In this document: one piece after another, positions 1,052 through 64,000 of the stretch | Layout of the letters: each line of letters starts with the position of its first letter | Numbering within the stretch: the first letter of the stretch is position 1 | IMG/VR virus record: IMGVR_UViG_3300045988_153198 | Origin: a virus | DNA length: 64,000 nt | Reading direction: 5' to 3' (one strand) | Notes under the pieces: generated by a model | The model's database searches: none | What the model saw: only the letters and a program-made list of their open reading frames with translations | What the model was told of the DNA's origin: nothing | Program-made: the position numbers and the translations under genes

Positions 1052-1396
1052 ATGCGTAAGAAAGGTTACAAGGGAAGATGTGAAAAGAAGAATTTAAGTA
1101 AAAGTCAGGAAGTATGCAGAACATACGATGCAATACAATCCAACTATGCAGATATTCTTCAGAATGACAACAACATACAGGAAATCAGATGCAATGTGTT
1201 GTTAGACGGTTTATCAGAAGGAGCTTATACCTCAGACTTTGTTTGTGTCAAATCAGATGGAGATTTGATGGTCAGGGAATGTGTTTTTAGAAAGTTTCTC
1301 ACAAAGCCTATGACAGTAAAGCTTCTGGATGCTTCAAGAGATTACTGGTTAAATCATGGTGTATCAGATTGGGGGATGGTCATTGATGAAGAATAG
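1052..1396 (+). CDS. tnsA: short TnsA-like endonuclease (114 aa)
   Basis: YTSDFVCVKSDGDLMVRECVFRK...DYWLNHGVSDWGMVIDEE follows the TnsA N-domain PD-(D/E)xK pattern (YTPDF..vEvK..yW..g..f.ivte). AGGAGG precedes ATG 1052. The track start at 932 runs through the repeat array. Confidence 0.6.
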   Translation: MRKKGYKGRCEKKNLSKSQEVCRTYDAIQSNYADILQNDNNIQEIRCNVLLDGLSEGAYTSDFVCVKSDGDLMVRECVFRKFLTKPMTVKLLDASRDYWLNHGVSDWGMVIDEE

Positions 1397-3233
1397 ATTA
1401 CAAAAGAAAATTACAAAGAATCAGCTATTACAGAATGATACTCAGCTTATAAGGGTTTTGGATATAGAAGCCTACAGAGTATTTGTCATTGACTGTATCA
1501 AAAAAACTATGCCAGTCTGGACAGATGCAGAATCATTAAAAGATTATCTTCCATGTTCTGAAGATACATTACAGGAAATCACAGATACTATTCTGATTGA
1601 CCTTGATAATTTAGATTCAGAAGGAAGAAAGACAGCATATGAAAGATATACAATGATTGCCCCTTTGCTGCCTTTTGTATCAGACCAGAAAAAACGAAAA
1701 GAACTGATAAACAGCCTTGCAAATATAAACTCAGTCAGCAAACAGACAATCAGATACTACCTCTGCTTATATCTGGTTTATCAGAATATATCTATACTTA
1801 TACGCAAGCAGAGTGTGAAAGAAAGCGTTTTATCTCAGGATGAGAAGAATATGAGGTGGGCTTTAAACAAGTTCTTTTATACCAAGCACAAGAACAGTTT
1901 GCCTGTGGCATATACGCTATTACTGAAAGAAAAATATTGTGATTCACTAGGAAATCTGCTGCCTGAATATCCTTCATTTTATCAGTTCCGATACTTCTAC
2001 AGAAGAACAAAAAAGATGCAGACCTATTATATTTCAAGAGATGGGTTGAAGGACTACCAAAAAAATAACAGACCGCTGCTAGGGGATGGAATACAAGAAT
2101 ATGCTTCGTCTGTAGGTATGGGAATGTTAGATGCGACTGTGTGTGATATTTACCTTATCAATGAAGCTGGTAATTTGGTAGGCAGACCGATATTGACAGC
2201 TTGCATAGATGCCTATAGTTCTTTATGTTGTGGTTATTCTCTGTCATGGGAAGGCGGTGTGTATTCTCTCAGAGGATTGATGTTAAATATCATTTCAGAT
2301 AAACAGAAGTGGTGTAGTCAATACGGTATCAGTATTAAGAAATCACAGTGGGATGCAGACAAGCTCCCAGCAATCTTTGTAACTGATATGGGTTCTGAAT
2401 ATAAATCTGAGAACTTTGAACAGATAACAGAACTAGGAGTAACTGTGGTAAATCTTCCATCTTACAGACCCGAACTGAAAGGAGCTGTGGAGAAATTTTT
2501 TGATTTAGTACAGAATACCTACAAGCCATATTTGAAGGGAAAAGGTGTAATAGAGCCAGATTATCAAGAGAGAGGTTCGCATGATTACAGGAAGGATGCT
2601 TGCCTTACTATGGTAGATTTTGAAAAGGTCATTCTCCGATGTATCATTTATTATAACTCACAGAGGATTATAGAAAATTTCCCATATACTGAAGGAATGA
2701 TACAGAATCAGATTCAGCCATTTGCAAGCAATATCTGGGAATGGGGAAAGACACAGATAGGGGCTAATTTGATTACAGTTGATAAAGAACAGATTGTATT
2801 GACCCTTCTTCCAAGGATTACAGGTAAGTTCTCCAGATTTGGACTCAGAGTAAACAAAATGCGGTATAAGCATGAGAATTTCACAGAAAAATATCTTGCT
2901 GGTGGAGAGGTAACAGTTGCCTACAATCCAGATGATGTATCAGCGGTATGGTTGATTGACAATGGTTCTTATATTCGATTTGACTTAATAGAAAGCCGAT
3001 ATAAGGGCAAGGAATTATCAGATGTAGAAATAATGCAGAAAGGTCAGAAAGAGCTTGTAAAGGCTGCTACAGCAGATAATATACAGGCACAGATTAACCT
3101 TGCACAGTCTATAGAAATCATTGCTGCATCTGTAAATAATCCTGATAAGGTCAATATAAAATCTATCAGGAATACCAGACAGAGAGAACAGACAAAGAAT
3201 CATATTGATTATATTAGGGGGATTGAAGCATGA
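1386..3233 (+). CDS. tnsB: TnsB-like DDE transposase (Mu/rve type)
   Basis: DDE candidates are LDATVCDIY, FVTDMGSEYKS and KGAVEKFF. A Mu-transposase-C-like stretch is present (FGLRVNKMRYKHE...VTVAYNPDDVSAVWL). The start could be 1356 or 1386, and it overlaps the tnsA stop. Confidence 0.8.
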   Translation: MKNRLQKKITKNQLLQNDTQLIRVLDIEAYRVFVIDCIKKTMPVWTDAESLKDYLPCSEDTLQEITDTILIDLDNLDSEGRKTAYERYTMIAPLLPFVSDQKKRKELINSLANINSVSKQTIRYYLCLYLVYQNISILIRKQSVKESVLSQDEKNMRWALNKFFYTKHKNSLPVAYTLLLKEKYCDSLGNLLPEYPSFYQFRYFYRRTKKMQTYYISRDGLKDYQKNNRPLLGDGIQEYASSVGMGMLDATVCDIYLINEAGNLVGRPILTACIDAYSSLCCGYSLSWEGGVYSLRGLMLNIISDKQKWCSQYGISIKKSQWDADKLPAIFVTDMGSEYKSENFEQITELGVTVVNLPSYRPELKGAVEKFFDLVQNTYKPYLKGKGVIEPDYQERGSHDYRKDACLTMVDFEKVILRCIIYYNSQRIIENFPYTEGMIQNQIQPFASNIWEWGKTQIGANLITVDKEQIVLTLLPRITGKFSRFGLRVNKMRYKHENFTEKYLAGGEVTVAYNPDDVSAVWLIDNGSYIRFDLIESRYKGKELSDVEIMQKGQKELVKAATADNIQAQINLAQSIEIIAASVNNPDKVNIKSIRNTRQREQTKNHIDYIRGIEA

Positions 3234-4474
3234 TTGATTTTACAACGAAACTTCCAGAAATGAAATCAGGGAATGAACTTATATGTGCATTATCTATCAT
3301 TCCTGAATATGATGAAACCATATGCCAGCAGAACCAAGCAGTTAGATTAATGGCATTATCAGACCTGTACCAGATATATGTACCATCTCAGATGAGTATT
3401 GAAATCTATAATAAATTGTATCTTGCCTTGCTTCGTTCTATGCAAAAGAAAGGCTCTCAGATGGCTATAAAACAAAGATATGAGAACTATAAGGCAATGC
3501 AGCAGCAATCTTATAGCGGTATTCTGGGCGGTTCTGATTCATTCACAATTATCGGTACTTCAGGAATAGGTAAATCCTCTGCCATCAGCAGAGCTATATC
3601 CTTGATTACTGAAAATCGTATCATAGAAACAGACAAGCCATATACAAAGATTATCCCATGCCTGATTGTACAGTGTCCGTTTGATTCTTCAGTAAAAGGC
3701 TTGCTATTGGAAATCCTCAGAAAAGTAGATGAAGAACTGGGAACAGACCATTATATTCATGCAGTAAAATCCAGAGCTTCTACAACAGATATGCTTATAG
3801 GTGCGGTCAGCTCTATTGCATTAAATAATATTGGTATGCTGGTAGTAGATGAGATACAGAATGTTGTCAACTCCAAGAATGGAAAGAGCCTGATAGGTGC
3901 ATTGACTCAACTTATCAATAATTCGGGTATCTCTATTTGCATGGTGGGTACTCCTGAAAGTACAGTGTTTTTTGAACAGGCTATGCAGCTTGCAAGGCGG
4001 TCTGTAGGACTACAATATACAACTATGAAATATGATGAGTATTTCCAGAGCTTCTGCAAAGTGATTTTTAAATATCAATTTTTAAAAAATCATACAGAGA
4101 TAACCGCTGCTATTACAGAATGGCTATATGAACATTCTGCTGGTGTGGTTTCTGTTGTGGTATCTCTGATTCATGATGCACAGGAAATAGCAATTCTTAC
4201 AGGGAAAGAGGTTTTAAATCTGGATACTCTGAATGAAGCATACCAACAGAGATTAACATTGCTTCATGGATATATACAGCCCTCTGTGATTCAGAATAAA
4301 CCGACAACCAAAAAGAAAAAGACTGCTGCCAGTGTCAAAAAGAATCAGATACAGAGCCAGCCCAAACAGGAAAGATATTCTATCACTGAAATTGCAGAAA
4401 GAGCCAAAGCTGAGAATTTGGATGTAGTAGAATTGTTGAAAGAAGTTTATACCGTTATTGAGGTGGCAATATGA
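3230..4474 (+). CDS. tnsC: TnsC/TniB-like AAA+ ATPase
   Basis: Walker A is GTSGIGKSS and Walker B is MLVVDEIQN. There is a 4-nt overlap with tnsB and with tniQ. Confidence 0.8.
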   Translation: MIDFTTKLPEMKSGNELICALSIIPEYDETICQQNQAVRLMALSDLYQIYVPSQMSIEIYNKLYLALLRSMQKKGSQMAIKQRYENYKAMQQQSYSGILGGSDSFTIIGTSGIGKSSAISRAISLITENRIIETDKPYTKIIPCLIVQCPFDSSVKGLLLEILRKVDEELGTDHYIHAVKSRASTTDMLIGAVSSIALNNIGMLVVDEIQNVVNSKNGKSLIGALTQLINNSGISICMVGTPESTVFFEQAMQLARRSVGLQYTTMKYDEYFQSFCKVIFKYQFLKNHTEITAAITEWLYEHSAGVVSVVVSLIHDAQEIAILTGKEVLNLDTLNEAYQQRLTLLHGYIQPSVIQNKPTTKKKKTAASVKKNQIQSQPKQERYSITEIAERAKAENLDVVELLKEVYTVIEVAI

Positions 4475-5823
4475 TAACATACCTTCCTGAAATATATCCA
4501 GATGAGCTTGTATATAGTTGGTTTTGTCGGTATGCAATCCATTCAGGATATACGTCACATAAACGAGTATTACAGGAGTTGTACTGTAAAAAATCAGATA
4601 CACCGATTAAAGAATTTATTGGTAATCTCAATCCTGAAGCAAGAGAATGTATTGATAAAATGTATCCGTTGAGGGATTTAGTATTAAATCACACCATGTA
4701 TCCTCAGTATGCCAGATTCATTCCATTGGAACAAAAGAAGGATGCTTTATATAAATTGTGTTATGAGAATTGTGATGCACACCATTTATTTGCAGTTCTT
4801 CCAAGGTGTGAGAAAGAACGCTACTTGAAATATTGTCCTGTATGTGCAAGTGAGGACAGACAGAGATATGGGGAAACATATTGGCACAGAAAACACCAAA
4901 TAAGGAATATGGGGATTTGTCCAAAACATAAGTGTAAGCTTCAGGACTCCAGCGTTTCAGCTAAAAGTATGAATATATATAATTTCTCTGCTGCTGAGAT
5001 TGCTATTCCTGATTCGGAAGAATATATACCTGTTGATAATCCTTTACAGATAAGATTTGCAGAGTACACAGAACAGGTTTTTGATACTCCTGTAGATTTT
5101 GAAAAGGATGTTCCACTCAGCACTATGTTGTATTATGCCATGAAGAATACAAAATATATGAAATCAACAGGAAGATGTCGATACATGACAAAGTTTGTTT
5201 CTGACATGACACGCTTTTATGAACAAATCGAACTGAATGAGATTGCCAGTATCGGAAGGATTCAAAGGACTTTGTTATCTGGGGAAAGATACGATTTTTC
5301 TCTTACCTGTCAGATTGGTTTCTTTCTGAATATGACATCTGAAGATTTGACTGCTCCTCAGTTATCGGAAGAACAGATAAAGATAGAAGAGGAAAGCCAT
5401 TATATCAAGGGAAAGACTACACCAGATTGGGAAGAATATGACAACAAAATGTCTCTTATCTTGGAACAGGTTGCAGAAGATATTTATAGCGGTGCTGCTG
5501 ATAGCATGGGAAAGCCTGAAAAGGTAACTGAGAAATTTATATGTAGGATACTGGGAATAAAGCAGCACCAACTTGAGAATATGCCTAAAAGCAGAGCTGT
5601 ATTAGAGAGATATTCAGAATCATATCCTGAATCATGGGCTAGAAAATTGGTATGGGCTTATGAGTGGCTTGAGAACAATGAGGAAGATGTATTTTACTGG
5701 AAACATCTCAGGAAACTCACAGGAGTTAAGAAAGAGCATTTTGATGAGATTATTCCATACCTTAAAAAGTATGCAGATGAGTATGAAGTGAAAAATATCA
5801 TAAAAATAGTTATGGGAGAGTAA
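4471..5823 (+). CDS. tniQ: TniQ/TnsD-family target-selector protein
   Basis: The N-terminus LPEIYPDELVYSWFCRYAIHSGY is a TniQ-type opening. A zinc ribbon CPVC...CPKHKC follows. Confidence 0.7.
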   Translation: MITYLPEIYPDELVYSWFCRYAIHSGYTSHKRVLQELYCKKSDTPIKEFIGNLNPEARECIDKMYPLRDLVLNHTMYPQYARFIPLEQKKDALYKLCYENCDAHHLFAVLPRCEKERYLKYCPVCASEDRQRYGETYWHRKHQIRNMGICPKHKCKLQDSSVSAKSMNIYNFSAAEIAIPDSEEYIPVDNPLQIRFAEYTEQVFDTPVDFEKDVPLSTMLYYAMKNTKYMKSTGRCRYMTKFVSDMTRFYEQIELNEIASIGRIQRTLLSGERYDFSLTCQIGFFLNMTSEDLTAPQLSEEQIKIEEESHYIKGKTTPDWEEYDNKMSLILEQVAEDIYSGAADSMGKPEKVTEKFICRILGIKQHQLENMPKSRAVLERYSESYPESWARKLVWAYEWLENNEEDVFYWKHLRKLTGVKKEHFDEIIPYLKKYADEYEVKNIIKIVMGE

Positions 5824-7369: not shown

Positions 7370-7750
7370 TTATGCAAATACCACATCTGCAATTTCCATA
7401 ATGCAACCTTTAAGCATCTCATTATCACTTGATAAGGAACGATTTTCATTTAAAAGATATTCAATCTTTTCCTTGTCACTTAATTCTACTGGGAGTTCTG
7501 CATCTTTTTTTGCATACTCAATCCAAGTATCGAGATTGCTTTTAATTTCTTCGAGTAAACCAGTACGATATTTTAACTCAAAACGATATGAGTCATATTC
7601 GTAATATTCGGTTGTAGTTTCTTCATCACCCATAGACATTGTTTTTGTTAATGTATCTGAGATATTTGTATTGATAATAACGTCACACAGTCCAGCACTT
7701 GTTCTTTCAATAATGACTGATTCTGGTCTTTGATTGCTTTCTGCTCTCAT
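7370..7750 (-). CDS. hypothetical acidic protein (126 aa), translationally coupled to the RT
   Basis: AAGGAGG lies 9 nt upstream of ATG 7750. The ORF overlaps the RT 3' end by 44 nt. No family recognised. Confidence 0.55.
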   Translation of the reverse strand: MRAESNQRPESVIIERTSAGLCDVIINTNISDTLTKTMSMGDEETTTEYYEYDSYRFELKYRTGLLEEIKSNLDTWIEYAKKDAELPVELSDKEKIEYLLNENRSLSSDNEMLKGCIMEIADVVFA

Positions 7751-8849
7751 TTGCTACGACCTCCTTTAAAATTTTTATATTCACATTCTTTAGATATTTC
7801 ATATAAAAGAAATGTGAATCTGTATATTTAATAGTTCCTACATAAGAAAGACATCCAGCACATAAAGAAAAAGATAGCTTTTGGTGATTGGCTATCTTTT
7901 TGGATGCTTTATTATATTTTCTTCTAATTCGTAAAGAGGTTGCTCTACGAATTTCAATGTGGTCACGATAAAATTTATACCCCATAAAGTCAAGAAATCT
8001 TCCACGATGGATAGGTTTACCAACTTTTTGACTAGCCTTTTTATCAATATAGTCTAATCTAAATACTTGCCAGTTACTTTTGATTTCCAAACCAAGAGTA
8101 GCACAATATTTATCTAACTCACGTTTTACACGATGCAGTTCCTTTTTGTTTTTACCAAAAATACAACCATCATCCATATAAAAAATACAATACTTCACAC
8201 GAAGTTCTTCTTTTAAATAGTGACACACATAACTAATAACAAAATTACATAGCCATTGAGATGTAACACTACCAATAGGAAGCCCATCATCATAACTGTA
8301 AAGAATTGTTTCTGCTAACCATAATACCTTTTTGTTACGAATTTTTCTTTTCAATAAATCCATAACAATATCAGGCTTGATATGTTGATAGCATTTCTTA
8401 AAATCTATTTTCAGACAATACTTAGTATTTTTATGGTCAGTTTCCATCCATCTCTTTACAAATTTCCTTCCGTATGTACCACCACGATTAGGAATACTTG
8501 CACATTGATGAACATAAAATTGCTTCATAAAAATATCTTCGCAAGCCAATACAAAAATCCAATGATATATCTGAGATAACATACTTGTTGAAGCAATATC
8601 CCTTATCTTATGAGTAGATGTATCATATACTTGTGATACATGGTATTCATCAGGCTTTCGTTTTTCTAAAATTAAACTTCTTTGAATACGCTCTGCTAGA
8701 TAAGCAATTTTTATTTCAATAGTATCTCCCTTACACCAGTTTATTAAATTCTTTGTTTCTGCCCTATGCCACTTGCCTTCCAGAGCTTTATAAATAGCAG
8801 CAATTATGAAATTAATATCTGTAATATCTTTAGTCACATAAGATTTCAT
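7707..8849 (-). CDS. DGR reverse transcriptase
   Basis: LPIGSVTSQ (the IGxxxSQ variant) and YMDDG (8166-8180). I place the start at Met80 of the track ORF (ATG 8849) because the upstream 79 codons run through the TR. Confidence 0.85.
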   Translation of the reverse strand: MKSYVTKDITDINFIIAAIYKALEGKWHRAETKNLINWCKGDTIEIKIAYLAERIQRSLILEKRKPDEYHVSQVYDTSTHKIRDIASTSMLSQIYHWIFVLACEDIFMKQFYVHQCASIPNRGGTYGRKFVKRWMETDHKNTKYCLKIDFKKCYQHIKPDIVMDLLKRKIRNKKVLWLAETILYSYDDGLPIGSVTSQWLCNFVISYVCHYLKEELRVKYCIFYMDDGCIFGKNKKELHRVKRELDKYCATLGLEIKSNWQVFRLDYIDKKASQKVGKPIHRGRFLDFMGYKFYRDHIEIRRATSLRIRRKYNKASKKIANHQKLSFSLCAGCLSYVGTIKYTDSHFFYMKYLKNVNIKILKEVVANESRKQSKTRISHY

Positions 8850-9013
8850 TAAGTTCTTTCTTAATCTCAAAGATGTTTGAATAAAATAATATTCTACTAA
8901 CCTCTGCTGCACCGATGAATTTTTACCAAGCGGTATGGCAAGCCTACTCAATTTGAACTCCAAACTGGTAGGTAGATTGTGTATTAAGATTTTATGAAAA
9001 TTATTAAGAAGTG

Positions 9014-9126
9014 CGAGCAGCAATATTCCACCACGCATTACCGACATCGTTGTTGCAATTCCAATAGACAAGCCCATCGTTAGCACCGTTATTCAAATTA
9101 CCGCCAACGTACACGACACGCAGCCA
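9014..9126 (-). repeat. DGR template repeat (TR)
   Basis: 113-nt match to 9493-9605. In frame it reads LRVVYVGGNLNNGANDGLVYWNCNNDVGNAWWNIAAR, with AAY codons at the variable sites. Confidence 0.9.
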
Positions 9127-55193: not shown

Positions 55194-55226
55194 TTTCTCA
55201 GTCCTTTCATTGCATAATTTTAATAG

Positions 55227-55316
55227 CGGAAGCGAAGGGATTCGAACCCCTATGCCGATTCACACCGACCTATCTGTTTTCAGGACAGACCTCTTCACCA
55301 GTTTGAGTACACTTCC
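55227..55316 (-). tRNA. tRNA-Ser: tRNA-Ser(UGA), class II
   Basis: Acceptor GGAAGTG/CGCTTCC, anticodon stem TCTGT/ACAGA, loop CCUGAAA (C rather than U at position 33), long variable arm, T-loop GGTTCGAATCC. Confidence 0.7.
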
Positions 55317-55321
55317 ATAAA

Positions 55322-55396
55322 CATCCGTATTCGGATTCGAACCGAAAACAACCGCTTTAGAAGAGCGATGCTCTAATTCCATTGAGCTATACGGAT
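55322..55396 (-). tRNA. tRNA-Arg: tRNA-Arg(UCU)
   Basis: Acceptor ATCCGTA/TACGGAT, D arm GCTC..GAGC, anticodon loop CUUCUAA. Confidence 0.8.
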
Positions 55397-55399
55397 ACA

Positions 55400-55471
55400 A
55401 GCATTATATGGGAATCGAACCCATATCGTCTGATTGGAAATCAGAAATCATAGCCTTTAGACCAATAATGC
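55400..55471 (-). tRNA. tRNA-Gly: tRNA-Gly(UCC)
   Basis: Acceptor GCATTAT/ATAATGC, anticodon stem TCTGA/TCAGA, loop UUUCCAA. Confidence 0.8.
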
Positions 55472-55474
55472 ATA

Positions 55475-55546
55475 AGCTCCCACACAGATTCGAACTGTGA
55501 CTAATTGATTACAAGTCAAACGTGCTACCATTATCACTATAGGAGC
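55475..55546 (-). tRNA. tRNA-Thr: tRNA-Thr(UGU)
   Basis: Acceptor GCTCCTA/TGGGAGC, anticodon loop CUUGUAA, T arm CACAG-TTCGAAT-CTGTG. Confidence 0.75.
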
Positions 55547-55551
55547 AATAG

Positions 55552-55623
55552 TGGATGTGAAAGGACTTGAACCTTCGATATACTGGTTAAAAGCCAGTTG
55601 CCATACCGCTTGGCTACACATCC
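55552..55623 (-). tRNA. tRNA-Lys: tRNA-Lys(UUU)
   Basis: Acceptor GGATGTG/CACATCC, anticodon stem ACTGG/CCAGT, loop CUUUUAA. Confidence 0.8.
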
Positions 55624-55627
55624 AAAA

Positions 55628-55700
55628 TGGAACTGGTGGGATTTGAACCCACAACCTTCTGCTTGCAAAGCAGTTATTCTCCCATTAGAACTACAATCCC
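55628..55700 (-). tRNA. tRNA-Ala: tRNA-Ala(UGC)
   Basis: Acceptor GGGATTG/CAGTTCC with a G3:U70 wobble (the Ala identity pair). Anticodon loop UUUGCAA. Confidence 0.8.
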
Positions 55701-55703
55701 ATA

Positions 55704-55786
55704 CGGAAAGCATTAGAATCGAACTAAATACCTTTCGGTACGCACTGTTTAGCAGACAGGCTCTATACCATATAGATTTACTCTCC
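55704..55786 (-). tRNA. tRNA-Ser: tRNA-Ser(GCU), class II
   Basis: Acceptor GGAGAGT/GCTTTCC, anticodon loop CUGCUAA, long variable arm GTGCGTACCGAAAGGTAT. Confidence 0.7.
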
Positions 55787-55790
55787 AAAA

Positions 55791-55862
55791 GGTGTATTGA
55801 AGGAATTGAACCCTCAACCATAGAATCACAATCTAGCGTTTTACCATTAAACTAAATACACC
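55791..55862 (-). tRNA. tRNA-His: tRNA-His(GUG) with encoded G-1
   Basis: An extra 5' G pairs with C73. Acceptor GTGTATT/AATACAC, D stem GTTT/AAAC, anticodon loop UUGUGAU. Confidence 0.8.
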
Positions 55863-55866
55863 ATAA

Positions 55867-55939
55867 TGACTTCGGAGGGAATCGAACCCATCAATCCCAC
55901 CTTGAAAGAGTGGTGTCTTAACCATTTGACCACGAAGCC
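55867..55939 (-). tRNA. tRNA-Glu: tRNA-Glu(UUC)
   Basis: Acceptor GGCTTCG/CGAAGTC, anticodon loop CUUUCAA. Confidence 0.8.
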
Positions 55940-56014
55940 ATAATTAAGGTCATTGCCTACCTTAATGCAGTAGGTTTTCATCTGCTATAACTCCGCAAAG
56001 TTATACCATTATTA

Positions 56015-56087
56015 ATGCGGAAGTGAGATTCGAACTCACGACACCCAGCTTATGAGACTGGTAAGCTAACCGCTGCTTTATTCCGCA
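56015..56087 (-). tRNA. tRNA-Met: tRNA with CAU anticodon (Met, or Ile if lysidine-modified)
   Basis: Acceptor TGCGGAA/TTCCGCA, D arm AAGC..GCTT, anticodon stem CCAGT/GCTGG, loop CUCAUAA. Confidence 0.75.
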
Positions 56088-56095
56088 ATAGAAAT

Positions 56096-56164
56096 AGAAT
56101 GTGTCAGATTTGAACTGCTCCCCATGACCCCAAATCACGTATGCTACCATTACACCACACACTC
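56096..56164 (-). tRNA. tRNA-Pro: tRNA-Pro(UGG)-like, short with a weak T stem
   Basis: Acceptor GAGTGTG/CACATTC, anticodon stem CGTGA/TCATG, loop UUUGGGG (G37). Only 69 nt, and I can pair just 3 bp of the T stem. Confidence 0.5.
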
Positions 56165-56199
56165 TAAAATAAAGGTTCTCATTATGTAGAGAAGCACAA

Positions 56200-56282
56200 T
56201 GCTGGTGACGAGATTTGAACTCGTACTGCTATATGCAATTGGGGCTTAAACCCAATGTGTCTGCCAATTCCACCACACCAGC
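56200..56282 (-). tRNA. tRNA-Leu: tRNA-Leu(UAA), class II
   Basis: Acceptor GCTGGTG/CACCAGC, anticodon stem TTGGG/CCCAA, loop UUUAAGC, long variable arm, T arm ACGAG-TTCAAAT-CTCGT. Confidence 0.8.
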
Positions 56283-56287
56283 AAATT

Positions 56288-56367
56288 AGTGAAAGAGAGG
56301 ATTTGAACCTCTACCTTCCGTTGTCTTATTCATAAATTCGGATATTCTACTTTTAAAATACTTTCAC
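56288..56367 (-). ncRNA. tRNA-like element with non-canonical core (possible pseudo-tRNA)
   Basis: Perfect acceptor GTGAAAG/CTTTCAC and T arm AGAGG-TTCAAAT-CCTCT. The 48 nt between them gave me no 5-7-5 anticodon arm or normal D arm. Confidence 0.35.
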
Positions 56368-56373
56368 TATAAG

Positions 56374-56454
56374 TGGGAGAGGTAGGACTTGAACCTACAA
56401 TGCCGAAGCCACGATTTTACAGACCGCTGCAATACCAATTCTGCTCACTCGCCC
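56374..56454 (-). tRNA. tRNA-Tyr: tRNA-Tyr(GUA), class II
   Basis: Acceptor GGGCGAG/CTCTCCC (one C:U mismatch), anticodon loop CUGUAAA, variable arm GGCTTCGGCATT. Confidence 0.75.
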
Positions 56455-56459
56455 ATAAA

Positions 56460-56531
56460 CAGGAAGTTAAGGATTCGAACCCTAATCTTACAGTTTTGGA
56501 GACTGTTGTGTTTCCATTACACCAACTTCCT
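56460..56531 (-). tRNA. tRNA-Trp: tRNA-Trp(CCA)
   Basis: Acceptor AGGAAGT/ACTTCCT, D arm GTGT..ACAC, anticodon stem ACAGT/ACTGT, loop CUCCAAA. Confidence 0.8.
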
Positions 56532-56536
56532 ATAAG

Positions 56537-56609
56537 CTCCCCCAACAGGACTTGAACCTGTGACATTCTGATTAACAGTCAGACGCTCTACCAACTGAGC
56601 TATAAGGGA
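56537..56609 (-). tRNA. tRNA-Asn: tRNA-Asn(GUU)
   Basis: D arm GCTC-AGTTGGTA-GAGC, anticodon stem TCTGA/TCAGA, loop CUGUUAA. Confidence 0.8.
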
Positions 56610-56658
56610 ATAATTAGAATGAAAACATCCAACTTTTATTGAACTACATTCTAATAAG

Positions 56659-56730
56659 CGACTCTATTGGGAATCGAACCCAAATCTTCCGAGAGACAGT
56701 CGGATATAATTGCCTTTATACCATAGAGCC
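56659..56730 (-). tRNA. tRNA-Asp: tRNA-Asp(GUC)
   Basis: Acceptor GGCTCTA/TAGAGTC, anticodon stem TCCGA/TCGGA, loop CUGUCUC, T arm TTGGG-TTCGATT-CCCAA. Confidence 0.75.
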
Positions 56731-57292: not shown

Positions 57293-57309
57293 GCATATAA
57301 CCTTAATTG
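57293..57309 (-). promoter_or_regulatory. conserved 17-nt motif, copy d (CAATTAAGGTTATATGC)
   Basis: Lies 8 nt after the RNAP stop codon and upstream of the 57251-57275 hairpin. Confidence 0.6.
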
Positions 57310-57317
57310 TAAGAGTT

Positions 57318-60167
57318 TTATAAAATTTTTTGACCCGACTTCATTTTGTTTCTTCTTGCTCTTTGAGTCTCTAATTTACGATTTTTTCTATATTCTTCAT
57401 AACAATCTGGACATCTGCAAGTATTATTATTTTTTGTCAACACATCAAACCATTCTCCGCAATCTACACACTGAATACTTTTATGATTATTTTTACATCC
57501 ATTTTCTTTTATATTTTCATAAATGATATTTCCATAACATAACCATAATGCAACTTTGTGTTTACTTTTCTTAATTCCGTATAAATATTTTACAAGTATA
57601 TCGGCTATTTCTGATTCACTATATCCAAATTCAGACAAAGCTGTTTTTATTTCATTTGAAATATTTTTATATAATAAATCCTGTACTATTTGAGAATGTT
57701 TCATTAAATCAGGAGAAAGATTTTCTTTATAATTTAGATTGATTTGAAAATGATGTTTGCTACTCAACTCACAATATTTTACAATCAAGGGGTCAGTCTT
57801 TTCCTTTATTAATTTTCCTCTATCAGTAAAATCAACACGACATTCAATATCGGGATTGTGCATAAGCAACTTATAATCTATAGCTCCTAATTTTAATGAC
57901 CTACAATTAATTCTCGGATTGGGGATAATGCTATTTAGCTTGTTTACAAAACTTGCATTTATATTTGAAACCTGTACTTCATCCTTATCTTTTGCATATT
58001 TGAAAAAATGAGGAACATTCTCTTTGGTGTGAGCAATGATTTTTTCATGAACATCTTTTGGACGTTGCGGTTTATATAAAGTTTTCGCATAATCAATGAC
58101 AAAGTTATTTTCCATACAAAGTAGTTTAACAAGGTCAATAGCTTCTTGTTTTTCCTCTGGTGTTCCTGAAATAAATACTTCACTGTTCCAAATTTTAGAA
58201 ATATTATTACTATACAATCCAATATTTCCACCTGTAAAAGCAGCCACCAATCCATTATAAATATTCTCAGATGTTAGAAGAGTGGGGGATGCTTTTCGCA
58301 TATTGTAATACAAAGGAACAATCCCTTTCATATTTCTTTCTGCGACTTCAATAAATTTCCTGTCAGACACCACAAGAGACTTATCTCCATCTACATCAAA
58401 CTGAAGAATTTTACTAATTAAGTCATGGCAACTGGTATAAATGGCATCAGTATCAAACCATTCTCTTATAAGTTTTTGACGTTCATTTTTACAATACGCA
58501 ATATTTTTTCTTATTGCGTGTTCTTTGTAAAGATGAGGAGAACGTAAACAATCCAACTTATCCGATTTTCTAAACAACCAACAAAATACTTCTTGGTCAG
58601 CCAATAATCCTTCAGGGTCTTTTATTCCCTGAAACCAATATTGACAAGCTGCATAAAAATCAGGAAGTAAAAAAGTATATTTTCCATAAATCTGTAATTT
58701 TCCAGACTTATACTGTTTTATCATGCTATCTTTAGTATTCCTCAGTTGTGTTTTTACATATTCGTCATTCAATAGGTCAGGATATAACTCTACAGACTTT
58801 TGAAACGAATTTTTATGTAAATTATAAGGGGTAATACCAAATGCATCTTTAATGTTCTCAACAGAAGAACAAAGATTTTGCAATTTATTGATAGATGGTT
58901 TTGCAATTTCCAATATCTCCTCATCAGTAATATCAGTTAATGTCTGAAGCATTTGATAATTGATTTTTGCATTTCTTATTCTATCCTCTTCAAGATTAGT
59001 ATATCCAGCAGTACAATGATATTTTTTATAATACTCTTTGTATTGCTCCCATGAATCATAATACTTCCACATCTTAAATTGTGATTTTGTAAATATGATT
59101 TCAATGCCTTCTGTGATAATATCATGTTCTTTTCCATAAATGTCCTTGATGATAGAAGAACAACCATTAACTTCTATAAAATGAACATAATCAAATTTTC
59201 CAAGTAGTCCTTTTACCCAAGGTAGGCGAACCATTCTGTTTTTACCCATATGAGGTAACATCATTCCAGCTCCATCGGTATGAGTAATTGGCACATAATC
59301 TGATACACGCTTGATAGAATAGTCTGCATCATCTACCAAGTCATATGTTCCAAACACATTTGTCTCAAAATCATCAATAACAATCGTCTTGTCAATATCA
59401 AATTCTTCCCATGCATCTGTAGCAGAGTTAGTTAATGCGGTGTATGCCAAATGCTTATTAGGATTATTACCACCTTTTGAATTAATGACATCTATTGTTA
59501 GTCCACACATAATTGTTTTTTCATATTTTTTCCATGTTGATTCTTTAATGAATACAGTTTTCTTTGTTCGAATTTGACCAGCAGAAGAAGTAAAGTAAAT
59601 ATACTTTTCTCCTTTATATGTAAATCCGTAATATATTAAATCTTTGATTATATCAAAATAATATACCTGAACAACCATAAAATCTTCTGACAGTTCATTA
59701 GGTTGTGCGTGTATCATTCTTGTAAAAGAAGAATCAAACACAGAAATTATTTTTTTATCAGAAACATCATTTTCCTTTAATTCACGAATATGATGCTTTC
59801 CATCAGAAACAATATTTGCATTGACTTTATTTTCCAGAAGTTGCAAAAGAGTATCTTTGCTGTACTTGATTTTTCTGTTTTTCATGGCAATTAATTCTTT
59901 AAGGTTGACATATTCATTTCCAAGAGATTGAATACGTTCTGTATCTTCGCCCCAACTTGAATAATCATATTCAGATTTTAACATTGTATCCAAATCACTT
60001 TGCTCAATTCCGTATTTAAAAAGTTCACTGGCTATATCTTTTGATTTTTGCACCAAAGCATTTCTTTCGGAACGCAATTTGTGATTTAACCAGTGTAGAT
60101 GAGCTTCGTGATTACTATAAAAGTTACCTGTATCCACACTATATATATTGATTTGAGTATCTAACAT
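57318..60167 (-). CDS. single-chain two-barrel RNA polymerase of the YonO / cellular-RdRP family (949 aa)
   Basis: Ordered motifs YFTSSAGQIRTKK, THTDGAGMM, RLPWVKGLLG, CLRSPHLYKEH and FDVDGDKSLVV (DxDGD encoded at 58383-58397). C-terminal CVDC...CPDC zinc ribbon and basic tail. Confidence 0.7.
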   Translation of the reverse strand: MLDTQINIYSVDTGNFYSNHEAHLHWLNHKLRSERNALVQKSKDIASELFKYGIEQSDLDTMLKSEYDYSSWGEDTERIQSLGNEYVNLKELIAMKNRKIKYSKDTLLQLLENKVNANIVSDGKHHIRELKENDVSDKKIISVFDSSFTRMIHAQPNELSEDFMVVQVYYFDIIKDLIYYGFTYKGEKYIYFTSSAGQIRTKKTVFIKESTWKKYEKTIMCGLTIDVINSKGGNNPNKHLAYTALTNSATDAWEEFDIDKTIVIDDFETNVFGTYDLVDDADYSIKRVSDYVPITHTDGAGMMLPHMGKNRMVRLPWVKGLLGKFDYVHFIEVNGCSSIIKDIYGKEHDIITEGIEIIFTKSQFKMWKYYDSWEQYKEYYKKYHCTAGYTNLEEDRIRNAKINYQMLQTLTDITDEEILEIAKPSINKLQNLCSSVENIKDAFGITPYNLHKNSFQKSVELYPDLLNDEYVKTQLRNTKDSMIKQYKSGKLQIYGKYTFLLPDFYAACQYWFQGIKDPEGLLADQEVFCWLFRKSDKLDCLRSPHLYKEHAIRKNIAYCKNERQKLIREWFDTDAIYTSCHDLISKILQFDVDGDKSLVVSDRKFIEVAERNMKGIVPLYYNMRKASPTLLTSENIYNGLVAAFTGGNIGLYSNNISKIWNSEVFISGTPEEKQEAIDLVKLLCMENNFVIDYAKTLYKPQRPKDVHEKIIAHTKENVPHFFKYAKDKDEVQVSNINASFVNKLNSIIPNPRINCRSLKLGAIDYKLLMHNPDIECRVDFTDRGKLIKEKTDPLIVKYCELSSKHHFQINLNYKENLSPDLMKHSQIVQDLLYKNISNEIKTALSEFGYSESEIADILVKYLYGIKKSKHKVALWLCYGNIIYENIKENGCKNNHKSIQCVDCGEWFDVLTKNNNTCRCPDCYEEYRKNRKLETQRARRNKMKSGQKIL

Positions 60168-60397: not shown

Positions 60398-61282
60398 CTA
60401 ATCTCCTTTGATTCCAATTTTTTGTTTTTTATTTGCTATTTCAGTAATCCAGTATGATTCTGAATCAGTGAGTAGATAATCACGCTCTCGTTTATAGGAA
60501 TTACAAAATATAGTATGATTGGTTTTCCATTTTACTTTTCCATCGTCAGTTATATATTTTGTTCTTCCAATTTCCTCAAACTGAATCAAATGTAATTCAT
60601 CCCTGAGACAATTTACAATTTTTCCAAATGTGCGTACAGACACTCCCAATTCTTCAGCCATATCTTTATAATAATCATTATAAGCTTCAGGAAATTGTAT
60701 TTGCTTTTCCAGAATATCTTCATCTAATCTATACTGATTAGACCTTCGCATAATCGACATTCGTAAATAAGCAAATACCAACAATAACGAAAAACTGTTT
60801 AAATACACATCTTTAGGATTACCCTGATAATTCATAATAGCTTTTATCTCGTCAAGATAAATAATAGCAAATCTATTATGATTATTTTCTTGTGCAGCAC
60901 TAACTGTGTCAAAAGAAGCTTCTACAAATTGTTCCCAAATAGGAGCAGTACCTTTACTTGTTTTCGTAAACACATCTTCTGGATATGTTAAATACCCCAA
61001 GTCTTTCAAGTCACTAATTACACCAAGTAATTTATCATTGATACGTCCTTTATTCCTGTTGGGCTTTTTATTGAACCAATGTATCATTGCATTGATTGAA
61101 AAATATAAACAACTGTCTAATCCTCTTCGAAACATAAAAAATGAATAAGCTGCAACACGCATGACATCCATATCCTTGTTTAAGATAATAGAAGATGGGA
61201 TAGTAATATACTTCCCAGCATCCCCTGTTAATTGCACAGGTATGTATTCACTTTTTGTTTCAGCAATGTTAATCACCTCCAA
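60398..61282 (-). CDS. hypothetical protein, possible replication initiator/DNA-binding protein (294 aa)
   Basis: First gene downstream of the operator/iteron region. The start codon is uncertain (TTG 61282 or GTG 61276). No motif-level identification. Confidence 0.35.
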   Translation of the reverse strand: MEVINIAETKSEYIPVQLTGDAGKYITIPSSIILNKDMDVMRVAAYSFFMFRRGLDSCLYFSINAMIHWFNKKPNRNKGRINDKLLGVISDLKDLGYLTYPEDVFTKTSKGTAPIWEQFVEASFDTVSAAQENNHNRFAIIYLDEIKAIMNYQGNPKDVYLNSFSLLLVFAYLRMSIMRRSNQYRLDEDILEKQIQFPEAYNDYYKDMAEELGVSVRTFGKIVNCLRDELHLIQFEEIGRTKYITDDGKVKWKTNHTIFCNSYKRERDYLLTDSESYWITEIANKKQKIGIKGD

Positions 61283-61345
61283 TCGCCAAGAAAGATAATA
61301 TATTTCACTATCAAATAATCACATTGTAGGTAAAACGCAATAGCT

Positions 61346-61362
61346 GGTACAAATCTTGTACC
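61346..61362. promoter_or_regulatory. operator-like palindrome O1 (GGTACAA-ATC-TTGTACC)
   Basis: Perfect 7-3-7 inverted repeat. The 18-mer AGCTGGTACAAATCTTGT recurs at 61385-61402. Confidence 0.65.
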
Positions 61363-61388
61363 TGCTTTTTCTCAAGGTATGAAAAGCT

Positions 61389-61405
61389 GGTACAAATCTT
61401 GTCAC
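61389..61405. promoter_or_regulatory. operator-like site O2 (GGTACAAATCTTGTCAC)
   Basis: Second copy, with two changes in the right arm. A looser third copy, GGTCAAAAATCTTGTTGCC, lies at 61475-61493. Confidence 0.55.
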
Positions 61406-61519
61406 GTTTTTGCAGTTCTAAACATATAAGATACCTATTACAATAAGAATAGTTATCTCTCTGGCGAGAGATGAGGTCAAAAATCTTGTTGCCATGTGAC
61501 ATTAAAAGTGATGCCTAAA

Positions 61520-61557
61520 ATTATTATACGAGATTTTTCTCAAATTTAGGAAGTAAT
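61520..61557 (-). promoter_or_regulatory. conserved bipartite promoter-like element (copy B) reading leftward into the early operon
   Basis: Minus-sense ATTACTTCCTA-N13-TCTCGTATAATAAT. The three operator-like sites lie between it and the first gene. Confidence 0.55.
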
Positions 61558-61581
61558 CAATGTAAAGTAATCAAAGTATTT

Positions 61582-61774
61582 GATGAATAGTTAAGAATGA
61601 ATAGATACTTAACGAATAGATACTTATTGGATACTTTATGAATAACTTCGAAAATGATTGAAAATAACGGTAAAAATCATATTGCTTTATTTTGTGCAAA
61701 ATCGAATTAGACGGTAAAAATTTAGAAAGTATTAAAATTAAAGTAAAATATAAATTAACGGAAAGAATTAACGG
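61582..61774. repeat. iteron-like short direct repeats in AT-rich DNA (candidate origin)
   Basis: GAATAGATACTTA occurs twice (61599-61611 and 61614-61626). AACGGTAAAAAT / ACGGTAAAAAT occur at 61667 and 61711. ATTAACGG occurs at 61754 and 61767. Confidence 0.5.
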
Positions 61775-61860
61775 TAGAAGCAAAAATAAAGCTTTATTTT
61801 AAATACTTTTTAATAAGGATTCTGTTAAATAAAATTCTCTGGCAGAGGATTAAAATATAC

Positions 61861-62400
61861 TTGTAGTTAGAATGTAGTTGATATTGGATTGTTTCATATG
61901 ATTAATTTGAGCTATTTGAATTGGTTCTGGTAAGAGAGATAGAGGAAGAATAAAAGAGGGATAATAATATTCTGGATATTAAGTTTGGATATTTGGAACT
62001 ATTTAAGAGTGTTGAAATGGGATTAAATTAGTATTATAAATTAGGCATTTTAGATAGGATAAGATAAGAGGATATTTGTTAGGCTTGAAATAGAATGAGA
62101 TTAGATTGGTATATTGATTGTAGTGTAAATAGGTTAAATTGAATTGTAATTTGGAATATGATTCAGGAAAAACAGATGGTTTCTGATAGATAATTTGGTA
62201 AATAAGAGAGTAAGAGATGAGTTTGTACCGTTGATTGTACCGTTGTGCATAAAGATATATGTTGATATGGTAAAGGGAGAATGTTGGATTGTATGTTGAG
62301 ATAATGTTAGGTTATATGTTGATGATTTTTAGTAATTTGGGATGATTTAGAATGATTTAGAATGAAAGATAAGTGTAAAAATTTTTTTGGTTGGGAAGAG
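61861..62400. other. C-depleted, G/A/T-only block
   Basis: My manual count is about 15 C in 540 nt, against abundant G. No credible ORF. Confidence 0.85.
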
Positions 62401-62580
62401 TTTTATCAGACAGTCGGCTGCTGGTCGGCTCAAATCGAAAAATATTTGTAAAATAGCCCCCTACCCCCTTATTTTAAGGATTTAATTTTTTCAATGTGAA
62501 AGACTGTAATTTTTTCACATTCATTTTATATAAATACCCCCTCCAATAGTATAGTAAAATGTTTCATGTAGTATTCATAA

Positions 62581-63240
62581 CTATATGTATAACAAATATA
62601 GAAGTTTTCAGAAAATAATAACGATTATTATTTTATTCTTTCCAGCTCAAAAAATTTATATAGATACTTCCATAACCCCACAAATTAAACCCCTTTACAC
62701 CCTCCACCCCCTTCCAAACTTTCCAGAACTCCACCCACTCCCACATAAAAAAGCAGCTAAAACCCACAAAAAACTCCTATTTTTCCATACTTTCCCCCAC
62801 TTTTATATAAATATAATCCCATATAATACCATACAACCCCACAAATACACCCAAACAAGCCCACAAACAACTCTATAAACTCCACTTTATACCCTTATAC
62901 AGTCCACCACTCCACCCCATACCATACCCCATAAACCCAAACAATAAAGCAATTATATTTTCTTTTCTTCTTTTCTCTTTTCCTTCTTTCCAGCTCCACC
63001 CTTGAAGCCCTTTTATATCCCTTGTATGCTGCCTTATATCCCTTTTATATCATTGTACAACCTTATACACCTATACAACCCTTATTATATACCCTTATAC
63101 CCCTTTAAAAGCCTTTAAAGCCCTATACAGTCAATACAACCCCATAACCCTATATAATATACATTAAAGCAATAAAAGCCCTTTAAAGCTCAAATAAACC
63201 CCATAGAAAAGAAAAGCAGAAACAAACTATATATAATAAT
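62581..63240. other. G-depleted, C/A/T-only block (mirror of 61861-62400)
   Basis: My manual count is about 30 G in 660 nt, against abundant C. Many CC(C)TT(T)TATA(C/T) short repeats. The only ORF there is low-complexity. Confidence 0.85.
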
Positions 63241-63303
63241 CTGGAAAGAATAAAAGCAGAAAAGCAGCTCTAAAAATAAATTGAAAAAAATATAAATTTG
63301 TAG

Positions 63304-63332
63304 TTGACAACTACATAAAAGCATGATAATAT
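63304..63332 (+). promoter_or_regulatory. sigma-A-type promoter P1
   Basis: TTGACA (63304-63309), 17-nt spacer, TAATAT (63327-63332). Confidence 0.65.
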
Positions 63333-63454
63333 AAAGCTACAAACAAACAAGACAACGCAAGAAAACAAAGCGAAGTTTTGAAGCACCTTGAAAATATCAT
63401 ATAAAAGCAGTTGAAAAGTACAAAAAACTTTTTCAAAAAAGTTAAAATAACTAC

Positions 63455-63483
63455 TTGACAACTACATAAAGATATGATAGTAT
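63455..63483 (+). promoter_or_regulatory. sigma-A-type promoter P2 (duplicate of P1)
   Basis: TTGACA (63455-63460), 17-nt spacer, TAGTAT (63478-63483). The flanks TTGACAACTACATAAA..ATGATA.TATAAAG.TACAAA are shared with P1. Confidence 0.65.
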
Positions 63484-63658
63484 AAAGGTACAAAGAACAA
63501 AGCGAAGCAATCAAGCGAAGCGAAGTTGTTTGTAAAACCTTTGAACCTTGATAATTTAATAAGTGCCTGAAGTAGTCCGTATAAAGTGTGACTTGTCCAC
63601 TTTAGAAAGTAACGCTTCGGGAAAGTGAATATTCCTTTTCCTTTTATCTTTTTACTAA

Positions 63659-63675
63659 CTGATAAGGTTATACAC
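63659..63675 (+). promoter_or_regulatory. conserved 17-nt motif, copy e (CTGATAAGGTTATACAC), plus strand
   Basis: In sense orientation for the plus-strand gene at 63845. Its first 8 nt are complementary to CTTATCAG about 85 nt downstream. Confidence 0.55.
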
Positions 63676-63844
63676 TAAAATAGTTGAGTGCTACCCATGT
63701 GGTTATAAGTTGCGTATATACTATTTGCAATACGTGTAAAATCTTATCAGGGTTAAACATACCGAAGGCGGTCACAAGTCCGATTGTAAAAATGTGAGTG
63801 GCTACAAAGTAAAAAGAGATTATAAAAAAGGAAGGTATAAAATT

Positions 63845-64000
63845 ATGATGAAAGTTGAAAACATGACAAGCTCAAGAAGTGGTAGAGAAGTAGCAAATCA
63901 GTTTATTATCAGAGATGATACTAGAATTGTATTCCAGTCTTATGACAGCACTATTGCAATCATTGACAACTCAAAAAAGGGAGCTGCAAGGCTCACACTG
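63845..64000 (+). CDS. 5' part of a plus-strand gene running off the window
   Basis: AAGGAAGG RBS then ATG 63845. My translation is MMKVENMTSSRSGREVANQFIIRDDTRIVFQSYDSTIAIIDNSKKGAARLTL, open to the window end. Confidence 0.5.
   Translation, partial: MMKVENMTSSRSGREVANQFIIRDDTRIVFQSYDSTIAIIDNSKKGAARLTL

Follow-up and report, generated by a model that had tools for sequence, protein, structure and literature searches.

The non-coding gap upstream of the yonO operon in a 64,000-nucleotide stretch of viral DNA (IMG/VR virus record IMGVR_UViG_3300045988_153198, referred to here as the window) contains two blocks of extreme and opposite base composition, one nearly free of C and the other nearly free of G, separated by a mixed centre. 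We propose, with a probability of roughly 0.62, that these blocks (hereafter, arms) are selected, dyad-symmetric flanks of a packaging terminus, and that the terminus probably takes the form of a short direct terminal repeat of ~250 bp at ~62417 to ~62665. The dyad symmetry is limited to composition; whichever arm is considered, the strand whose 5′→3′ direction leads to the terminus is rich in G and almost devoid of C, and the opposite strand is rich in C and almost devoid of G. The arm–core–arm layout is conserved in the SPβ-like family, always has the same polarity at the strongest skew, and coincides with the genome ends that have been mapped in relatives. The mixed centre is very probably the packaging cut site or short terminal repeat itself. 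The layout appears to be previously undescribed: no description of skewed arms was found in the published accounts of SPβ, Perkons or PMBT24 or by a literature search, and the reports on SPβ and Perkons give the position of the end alone, without mentioning skewed arms.

Base composition of the two arms

An earlier note on this DNA had counted, by hand, about 15 C in positions 61861–62400 and about 30 G in positions 62581–63240. A windowed count reproduced both figures exactly, with A188 C15 G137 T200 in the 540 nt of the left block and A244 C194 G30 T192 in the 660 nt of the right block; the centre between them (62401–62580) is mixed (C33 G23). Expressed per 500 nt, the C-poor block has 14 C, against a window mean of 94 (sd 15) and a minimum elsewhere of 53, and the G-poor block has 16 G, against a mean of 70 (sd 15.5) and a minimum elsewhere of 39. 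The depletion of C/G is more than 5 standard deviations off the mean of the 64-kb window. GC skew peaks at +0.83 in the left block and then at −0.90 in the right block. The boundaries are better redrawn, with the left arm ending at 62416, the core spanning 62417 to ~62665 and the right arm running from ~62666 to 63240.

Four other assemblies (L003, L004, L005 and L185) span the region, and the three that were aligned (L003–L005, 88–95% identity) retain the composition unchanged, which rules out an assembly artefact. In line with the earlier note, a search of the two blocks for an open reading frame (ORF) longer than 97 aa, a tRNA or an Rfam family found none. The geometry that it had described is also correct: RNA made outward from the centre, in either direction, would be rich in C and poor in G, and RNA made toward it would be G-rich. 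Its TATA-centred repeats are a property of the right block only, where TATA occurs 28 times (7.6 expected) and CC(C)TT(T)TATA(C/T) 10 times (0.2 expected). The left block has fewer TATA words than expected (4 versus 9.1) and merely three occurrences of GGATAT.

The depletion forms a plateau of ~500 nt with fairly sharp edges and fades outward for ~400 nt further beyond each arm. Within the arms, G is raised to 25–40%, and G+C does not fall below the genome average. AT skew is weak; in the left arm it is ~0, A being no scarcer than T. These properties bear on the idea that the arms are functionless, a by-product of the deamination of C on a 3′-ended strand left recurrently single-stranded by a fixed end. 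The weakening of the depletion with distance from the core is what such decay would give, the core (exposed on both strands in that scheme) is unskewed, and the arms are non-coding and fast-evolving. Even so, we consider it the least probable of the explanations weighed here, with only a slight chance of being right. The enrichment of G beyond the genome G+C share, together with the weak AT skew, argues for selection and against deamination decay; the left arm of PMBT24, for example, is 40% G in a genome of 32% GC. The ~500-nt plateau and its edges also count against it, and the adjoining coding DNA shows no skew gradient.

Recurrence upstream of yonO

The gene for the two-barrel RNA polymerase YonO was used as family marker and synteny anchor. 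Loci (161 in total) were oriented on yonO and scanned for skew. Counts refer to a de-replicated set of 75 loci, each with at least 6 kb on either side of yonO, and a bipolar switch was called when both 300-nt arms reached ≥0.5 (strong) or ≥0.4. Among the 161 loci, extreme skew blocks are almost confined to the upstream side of yonO. At the strong threshold, 12 of the 75 loci have a G-rich-then-C-rich switch upstream, and the opposite polarity upstream and either polarity downstream each score zero. Lowering the threshold to ≥0.4 gives 20 of 75 for the G-rich-then-C-rich switch upstream and three for the opposite polarity, and again none downstream in either polarity. The polarity of the switch opposes the coding-strand skew of the divergent flanking genes.

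Conservation in relatives, a check that the earlier note had put forward, is therefore borne out: the order of G-rich/C-poor arm, mixed centre and C-rich/G-poor arm recurs upstream of yonO. The arms of SPβ are weaker (+0.36, then −0.64), and those of the window are both longer and more extreme. Alignment of the arms is lost at 70% YonO identity.

Genome ends in relatives and the predicted terminus

The published work on SPβ places the genome opening point between yonR and yonP, with a precise block of high coverage of ~250 bp. The yonR–yonP gap is syntenic with the non-coding gap of the window, and the same layout (a non-coding gap upstream of the yonO operon, between divergent gene blocks) is found in SPβ and Perkons. 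Psychrobacillus phage Perkons, whose YonO is 42% identical, has a 264-bp direct terminal repeat (DTR) that was mapped by PhageTerm. When the Perkons concatemer junction was rebuilt, a G-rich arm (skew up to +0.81) abutted the left boundary of the repeat, the repeat itself was mixed and a C-rich arm (−0.80) followed. The record of Enterocloster phage PMBT24 begins at its PhageTerm pac site, which coincides with the inner edge of an arm that has 72 G but no C in 150 nt; ~330 nt beyond the pac site follows a second arm, in which 49 C and no G were counted. In Bacillus phage BUCT083, the record start is flanked by a G-rich arm (+0.57) and a C-rich arm (−0.96). In these virion-sequenced relatives, the genome end (the DTR of Perkons, the pac site of PMBT24 and the record start of BUCT083) lies at the inner edge of the G-rich arm. 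Metagenomic contig ends also cluster at the skew switch; two contigs from different species (L056 and L062) start 1 nt apart at a homologous site, and the repeat implied in L062 is ~362 bp.

The centres of the family share an element, GGGGGTAT-N2-TTTACAT in yonO orientation, and GGGGGTA is present in 12 of 25 centres but in 0 of 23 controls. The start of this element is 53 nt away from the mapped boundary in Perkons. Transfer of the 53-nt spacing to SPβ predicts a boundary between GGAAATGGAAGT and GCTATGGGTAC, which is exactly the site at which the BUCT083 record starts. Alignment of Perkons (known boundary), BUCT083 (record start), SPβ and four further loci (L141, L079, L116 and L121) gave a boundary template in which GTGGA precedes the boundary, GCTNNNGG follows it, and TGTAAA-N-ATACCCCC comes ~30–40 nt later. 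The window fits the template, with CAGACAGTCG before the boundary, GCTGCTGGTC after it and, further on, TTTGTAAAATAGCCCCC, a degenerate variant of the motif. This fit places the terminus of the window at ~62417 (±3 nt), precisely where the C-free arm ends. The suggestion of the earlier note that the region might be a packaging landmark is thus strengthened, since the centre matches the termini of Perkons, PMBT24, BUCT083 and SPβ in both position and sequence template.

A conserved core (62367–62684 among four close relatives) encloses the predicted repeat and, together with the skew step at ~62666, implies a repeat of ~250 bp, a length estimated by analogy with the 264 bp of Perkons and the ~250-bp block of SPβ. 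Locating the far boundary through homology to the word ACTT was abandoned because the word is too short to be diagnostic. A terminal-repeat probe occurs once per metagenomic contig, which is uninformative on a direct repeat. Two smaller features that the earlier note had reported in the centre were found where it had put them: GTCGGCT has just two copies in the window, at 62413 and 62424, and the arms of the 8-bp hairpin, ATGTGAAA and TTTCACAT, start at 62494 and 62513, respectively. The inverted repeat is conserved in L003, L004 and L005. A second ATACCCCC lies in the core at 62534–62541.

The centre element was compared with SPBRE, the operator of MrpR, and this identity was rejected; the element occurs just once in a 20-kb stretch of SPβ, although this stretch includes three promoter regions with SPBRE. 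In a clade with 48–51% identity (L049, L056, L057 and L062), a second GGGGGTA-N4-TTTACAT copy (GGGGGTACACTTTACAT) lies ~1.6 kb downstream of the centre, so the element is not strictly terminus-specific in some lineages.

Evolution, folding and periodicity of the arms

Substitutions were analyzed across four close relatives. Variable columns make up 17% of the left arm and 11.7% of the right arm, compared with 5.2% and 7.4% of the flanks, and the left arm is the fastest-evolving segment. Its changes include 63 A↔G exchanges, and only seven create C. In the right arm, 47 C↔T and 16 A↔C changes were seen, and only five create G. The excluded base stays out despite rapid turnover of the sequence; the arms are constrained on composition alone.

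The arms are also the least foldable single strands of the 64 kb, supplying 10 of the 13 lowest-folding windows. Per 200 nt, the left-arm single strand folds with −1.7 to −5.4 kcal/mol and the right-arm strand with −1 to −6 kcal/mol, against −15 ± 4.5 kcal/mol for the window. The core has above-average structure (−19 kcal/mol per 200 nt). Elsewhere in the window, folding is nearly as low only in 57301–57600 (−2 to −6 kcal/mol per 200 nt), a segment that covers the yonO 3′ end.

The two arms mirror each other in composition and not in sequence, as judged by the k-mers that they share in dyad orientation, which are fewer than in composition-matched shuffles (z = −9.6 for k = 5 and −6.6 for k = 6; range −9.6 to −1.6). 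This contradicts the proposal of the earlier note that the region is a protein-coating array, in so far as one motif is meant, and mirror (inverted) arrays of a single protein-binding motif were rejected on the same grounds. In the right arm, G/C-rich and A/T-rich clusters alternate with a phasing of 10–10.75 bp (power 11–18; background mean 2.1, maximum 7.4). Helical phasing was not retained as a family trait, as it is specific to this lineage. G-quadruplex motifs were found in the PMBT24 arms only; none is present in the arms of the window or of Perkons, and a G-quadruplex function was rejected. Chi arrays were likewise set aside, the B. subtilis Chi (AGCGG/CCGCT) being absent from the SPβ arms. 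To our knowledge, a C-free strand cannot carry any of the known Firmicute Chi sites.

How the arms might work

The mixed centre is proposed as the site where terminase opens the concatemer. In the mechanism that we favor, the arms would act while the DNA beside the cut is single-stranded. The absence of one base from one strand has hairpin-free single strands as its most direct physical consequence, and it is for this reason that a single-strand role is preferred; it is offered tentatively. Two settings can be imagined. Staggered, strand-specific nicking followed by fill-in could duplicate the repeat. Alternatively, 5′→3′ resection of a free end could expose a 3′ tail, G/T-rich and devoid of structure, for use in annealing or in invasion of the RecA type. 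Since G–C hairpins are impossible in a strand of three letters, the exposed 3′-ended, G/T-rich strand would stay open, available to a polymerase, single-stranded DNA-binding protein, RecA or an annealing protein. Because the dyad is centred on the repeat, both boundaries, or both DNA ends, would look alike to the approaching machinery. PMBT24 is described as encoding RecA, RecJ-like and Gam-like functions.

A competing explanation keeps the DNA double-stranded. The arms could be a low-specificity platform for the binding and wrapping of DNA by the small terminase or an HU-like protein, on which the packaging-initiation complex would form on either side of the cut, and the base exclusion would then be a side effect of degenerate, oriented binding words. 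The arms do abut mapped cut sites, the phasing of the right arm exceeds anything else in the window, and the two arms have distinct word sets, as do pacL and pacR of SPP1. A platform would also suit relatives that are reported to be headful packagers, and would fit better if they truly are. Against this, the exclusion covers every position and extends beyond the repeated words, turnover is rapid and a conserved word is lacking. Most relatives have arms without phasing, each arm, at 0.5 kb, is several-fold longer than characterized pac sites, and the absence of one base is left unexplained. We regard the platform as unlikely, although nearly as likely as the single-strand mechanism.

Several observations weigh against the terminus assignment or limit it. 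The feature is common rather than universal, as only about a quarter of the family loci reach the strong threshold. The strict pattern of the centre element has no match in the window, whose copy is therefore a degenerate version. The far boundary of the repeat is approximate only. Contig ends of this lineage at the terminus were looked for and not found; every public contig with the core spans it. The helical phasing, strong in the right arm of this lineage, is not family-wide. The authors of the SPβ and PMBT24 studies interpreted these phages as headful (pac) packagers; should this be correct, the majority of virion ends would lie elsewhere, which weakens any role linked to mature ends and favors one in the initiation of packaging. 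Finally, the single-stranded state of the arms is one that we infer.

Flanking regions, transcription and replication

The features of the gap and of the two genes to its left are listed in Table 1.

Table 1. Features of the non-coding gap and adjoining genes (positions in the window)
Feature	Position	Strand	Remarks
yonO homologue	57318..60167	−	Single-subunit two-barrel RNA polymerase, 949 aa; Pfam RdRP PF05183
294-aa protein gene	60398..61282	−	Two winged-helix domains; first gene left of the non-coding region
Non-coding gap	61283..63845		Between divergent gene blocks; yonO operon to the left, rightward genes from 63846
Left flank	61283..61860	.	AT-rich regulatory region; operator- or iteron-like direct repeats; C depletion fades across it
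Left arm	61861..62416	+	3% C, 25% G; G-rich strand runs 5′→3′ toward the predicted terminus
GTCGGCT (two copies)	62413..62430	+	Straddles the predicted terminus, between CAGACAGTCG and GCTGCTGGTC
Predicted short terminal repeat / pac core	62417..62665	.	~250 bp, mixed composition
Centre-specific element, window version	62445..62468	+	TTTGTAAAATAGCCCCCTACCCCC; family form (A)TGTAAA-N-ATACCCCC
8-bp inverted repeat	62494..62520	.	ATGTGAAA / TTTCACAT; inside the core
Right arm	62666..63240	+	1–7% G, 27–41% C; complementary G-rich strand runs 5′→3′ toward the core
Right flank	63241..63845	+	Two 102-nt tandem repeats with promoters, then leader; first rightward ORF from 63846

The two 102-nt tandem repeats of the right flank (63250–63502) each contain a strong promoter of the sigma-A type with a TG extension: P1 (TTGACA-17-TAATAT, 63304–63332) and P2 (TTGACA-17-TAGTAT, 63455–63483). 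A palindrome, GTAGTTGACAACTAC, overlies the −35 element of each. They look like early promoters with an operator. The tandem promoters lie ~0.9–1.05 kb from the predicted terminus, a geometry like that of T7 A1–A3.

The positions of these promoters bear on the suggestion that the arms are Rho-loading (rut-like) leaders, or an insulator in which Rho ends transcripts born in the centre before they enter the flanking operons. In composition, the RNAs diverging from the centre qualify, with 25–32% C and 3–4% G over more than 500 nt and minimal folding, well past the ~80 nt or more of a rut site. One sigma-70-like match (10/12) in the core, on the minus strand (62500→62471), is directed into the left arm. 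That match is weak and poorly conserved in L004, however, and promoter-like matches in the region are fewer than expected from shuffles. The strong promoters, P1 and P2 as well as the yonP promoter of SPβ, are all situated beyond the arms and face away from them. With no operon directed at the centre, an insulator would have nothing to separate. Arms that are equally extreme occur in the strictly lytic PMBT24, and the depletion is much stronger and longer than that of typical rut sites. The context therefore does not support Rho loading or insulation between operons, both raised by the earlier note, and we give them a low probability. A role of the arms through R-loops has weak support as well.

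The left flank is the best-conserved intergenic part (5.2% variable columns), and its segment from 61500 to 61860 is only 22–24% GC. Three families of direct repeats occur at 61339–61790: AGCTGGTACAAATCTTGT in two copies 43 nt apart, GAATAGATACTTA in two to three tandem copies, and ACGGTAAAAAT in two to three copies ~44 nt apart. These may be operators or iterons.

The neighbouring gene encodes a 294-aa protein whose AlphaFold2 model (mean predicted local distance difference test score, pLDDT, of 90) has a RepE-like fold; the top 31 Foldseek matches in the PDB are all RepE/Rep initiators (probability ~1, E ~4e-4, TM-score 0.33–0.48). Searches with its sequence returned only generic winged helix-turn-helix Pfam matches, and no Rep_3 or PDB sequence match. 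The protein was not accepted as a demonstrable Rep, as the likeness is one of fold and does not extend to a sequence-level family. The modelled fold suggests that it could be a replication initiator or, alternatively, a DNA-binding partner or specificity factor of YonO, a polymerase for which promoter recognition is described as unexplained. The gene lies directly upstream of yonO in every member of the clade with YonO identity ≥55%.

An origin of replication, also raised by the earlier note as a replication landmark, would have the RepE-like protein bind the left-flank repeats and melt an AT-rich stretch, with the arms serving as strand-asymmetric zones of helicase loading or R-loop priming. 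What stands of this proposal is the RepE/Rep-DUE fold match of the neighbour, the iteron-like repeats beside DNA of low GC content, and the G-rich, R-loop-prone nature of converging transcripts. What does not is the polarity, since skew runs from + to − (+0.8 to −0.9), opposite to that of an origin. Nor do the arms keep company with the gene: a homologue is undetectable in 15 of 24 arm-bearing loci, SPβ among them, and is missing beside the arms of Perkons and PMBT24. The neighbour lacks sequence-level membership of a Rep family, and the centre aligns with mapped packaging ends rather than with origins. We put an origin a shade below Rho loading in probability. A YonO late promoter was rejected as the identity of the region, as the SPβ site lies downstream of yonO/yonN and upstream of yonK.

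The phage and other features of the window

The window derives from a siphophage of gut Clostridia or Lachnospiraceae that is SPβ-like and encodes YonO. Its YonO homologue shares 43% identity with the SPβ protein and 52% with a protein of Clostridium phage D-1873. The tape measure, terminase and tRNA array follow yonO on the same strand, and the left-hand operon is thus not simply "early", comprising yonO and then tRNA and structural genes on one strand. The 15–16 tRNA genes (55226–56730, minus strand) lie directly downstream of yonO and head the structural block. Relatives are 115–165-kb viral contigs and prophages, mainly of Lachnospiraceae/Clostridia but also of Paenibacillus and Bacillus; a megablast search found no near-identical phage record. 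A crAss-like phage was ruled out, because the giant ORF is a tape measure and the RNA polymerase is of the YonO type.

In many relatives, the yonO homologue is split by insertions of 0.3–1.3 kb, with match spans of 3.2–4.1 kb (L037–L041, L060, L061 and several phage records); BUCT083 has an annotated GIY-YIG nuclease. The pattern suggests that introns or homing elements often invade the polymerase gene.

A Tn7-like transposition module (1356–5823, plus strand) lies inside or beside the phage and consists of Mu-transposase-C/TnsB-like (1356–3233), TniB/AAA_22 (3230–4474) and TniQ (4471–5823) genes. It could be a transposon carried by, or targeting, the phage; alternatively, the phage itself may use it for integration. 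An ORF for a reverse transcriptase (RT; 7707–9086, minus strand) has only generic RT/DRT-like matches in PADLOC. An Rfam RT-18 RNA match (8854–8935, minus strand; 56 bits, above the gathering score) falls within the annotated 5′ part of this ORF. The true start of the reverse transcriptase is probably downstream, and the RT-18 RNA a separate upstream element.

Implications

If the arms do mark the terminus, a scan for skew would locate the ends, and the pac or DTR sites, of uncultured SPβ-like gut phages and prophages without virion reads. Replication and packaging are acknowledged blind spots in SPβ. Beside the DNA ends, composition and polarity are conserved and sequence is not, which points to a step in concatemer processing or end recombination that acts on single strands or discriminates between strands; no such step is known to have been described for the SPβ-like family. 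At its broadest, the proposal is that a large family of Firmicute phages, those with YonO-type RNA polymerases, carries a telomere-like "three-letter DNA" module as a standard part of its packaging terminus, where it would keep the strand next to the cut free of hairpins and direct strand-specific end processing (duplication of the repeat, or end invasion by RecA or an annealase). Such a module would be a cis-acting element of a new class, whose defining traits are composition and polarity, not sequence. This is speculative, and we would not put it above a possibility. SPβ is genetically tractable in B. subtilis, which makes the idea directly testable.

Comparison with known systems

The closest comparison is within the family. 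The opening point or pac site of SPβ and the 264-bp DTR of Perkons share with the window the YonO family, the syntenic position, the boundary template and the arm–core–arm layout; the difference is that their termini are mapped, whereas that of the window is predicted from alignment.

Outside the family, the nearest described layout is the concatemer junction of T7, in which a 160-bp terminal repeat is flanked by arrays of short repeats, SRL and SRR. T7 and the window have in common a short terminal repeat, degenerate short repeats in non-coding DNA, and tandem strong host promoters ~0.5–1 kb from the end. SRL is C-rich (−0.64), the polarity of the right arm of the window. The class II signal of T7 RNA polymerase, ATCTGTT, is reportedly needed for concatemer processing. 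It has been located at the repeat boundary, where it is also visible in the T7 sequence (10.1101/2021.01.11.426313). The window nevertheless departs from the T7 type. The CCTAAAG-type units of T7 are directly oriented on both sides, with no mirror G-rich arm; G is not excluded, as CCTAAAG itself contains it; the arrays are ~150–300 nt long; and the RNA polymerase and terminase of T7 belong to families unrelated to those of the window phage.

The pac site of SPP1 (pacL–pacC–pacR) has its cut site between distinct recognition regions that have no common motif, one flank being intrinsically bent. It resembles the window in having a cut site with differing flanks on both sides. It differs in lying inside the small-terminase gene (the record starts within gene 1), in its total length of ~0.27 kb and in the absence of base exclusion.

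Rut sites are likewise C-rich, G-poor and unstructured, as are the RNAs that would diverge from the centre, but the arms are five to seven times longer, far more depleted and associated with a DNA end, not with an operon.

Eukaryotic telomeric repeats offer an analogy only. As in the arms, their end-directed 5′→3′ strand is G-rich and C-free and its complement C-rich and G-free, and the degenerate units of the arms resemble CCCTAA- or CCCCAA-type repeats. Telomeres differ in that the arms of the window are sub-terminal, flank a unique terminal repeat on its inner sides, are not built from one tandem unit and are not made by telomerase; the G-quadruplex motifs of telomeres have no counterpart in the arms of the window or Perkons.

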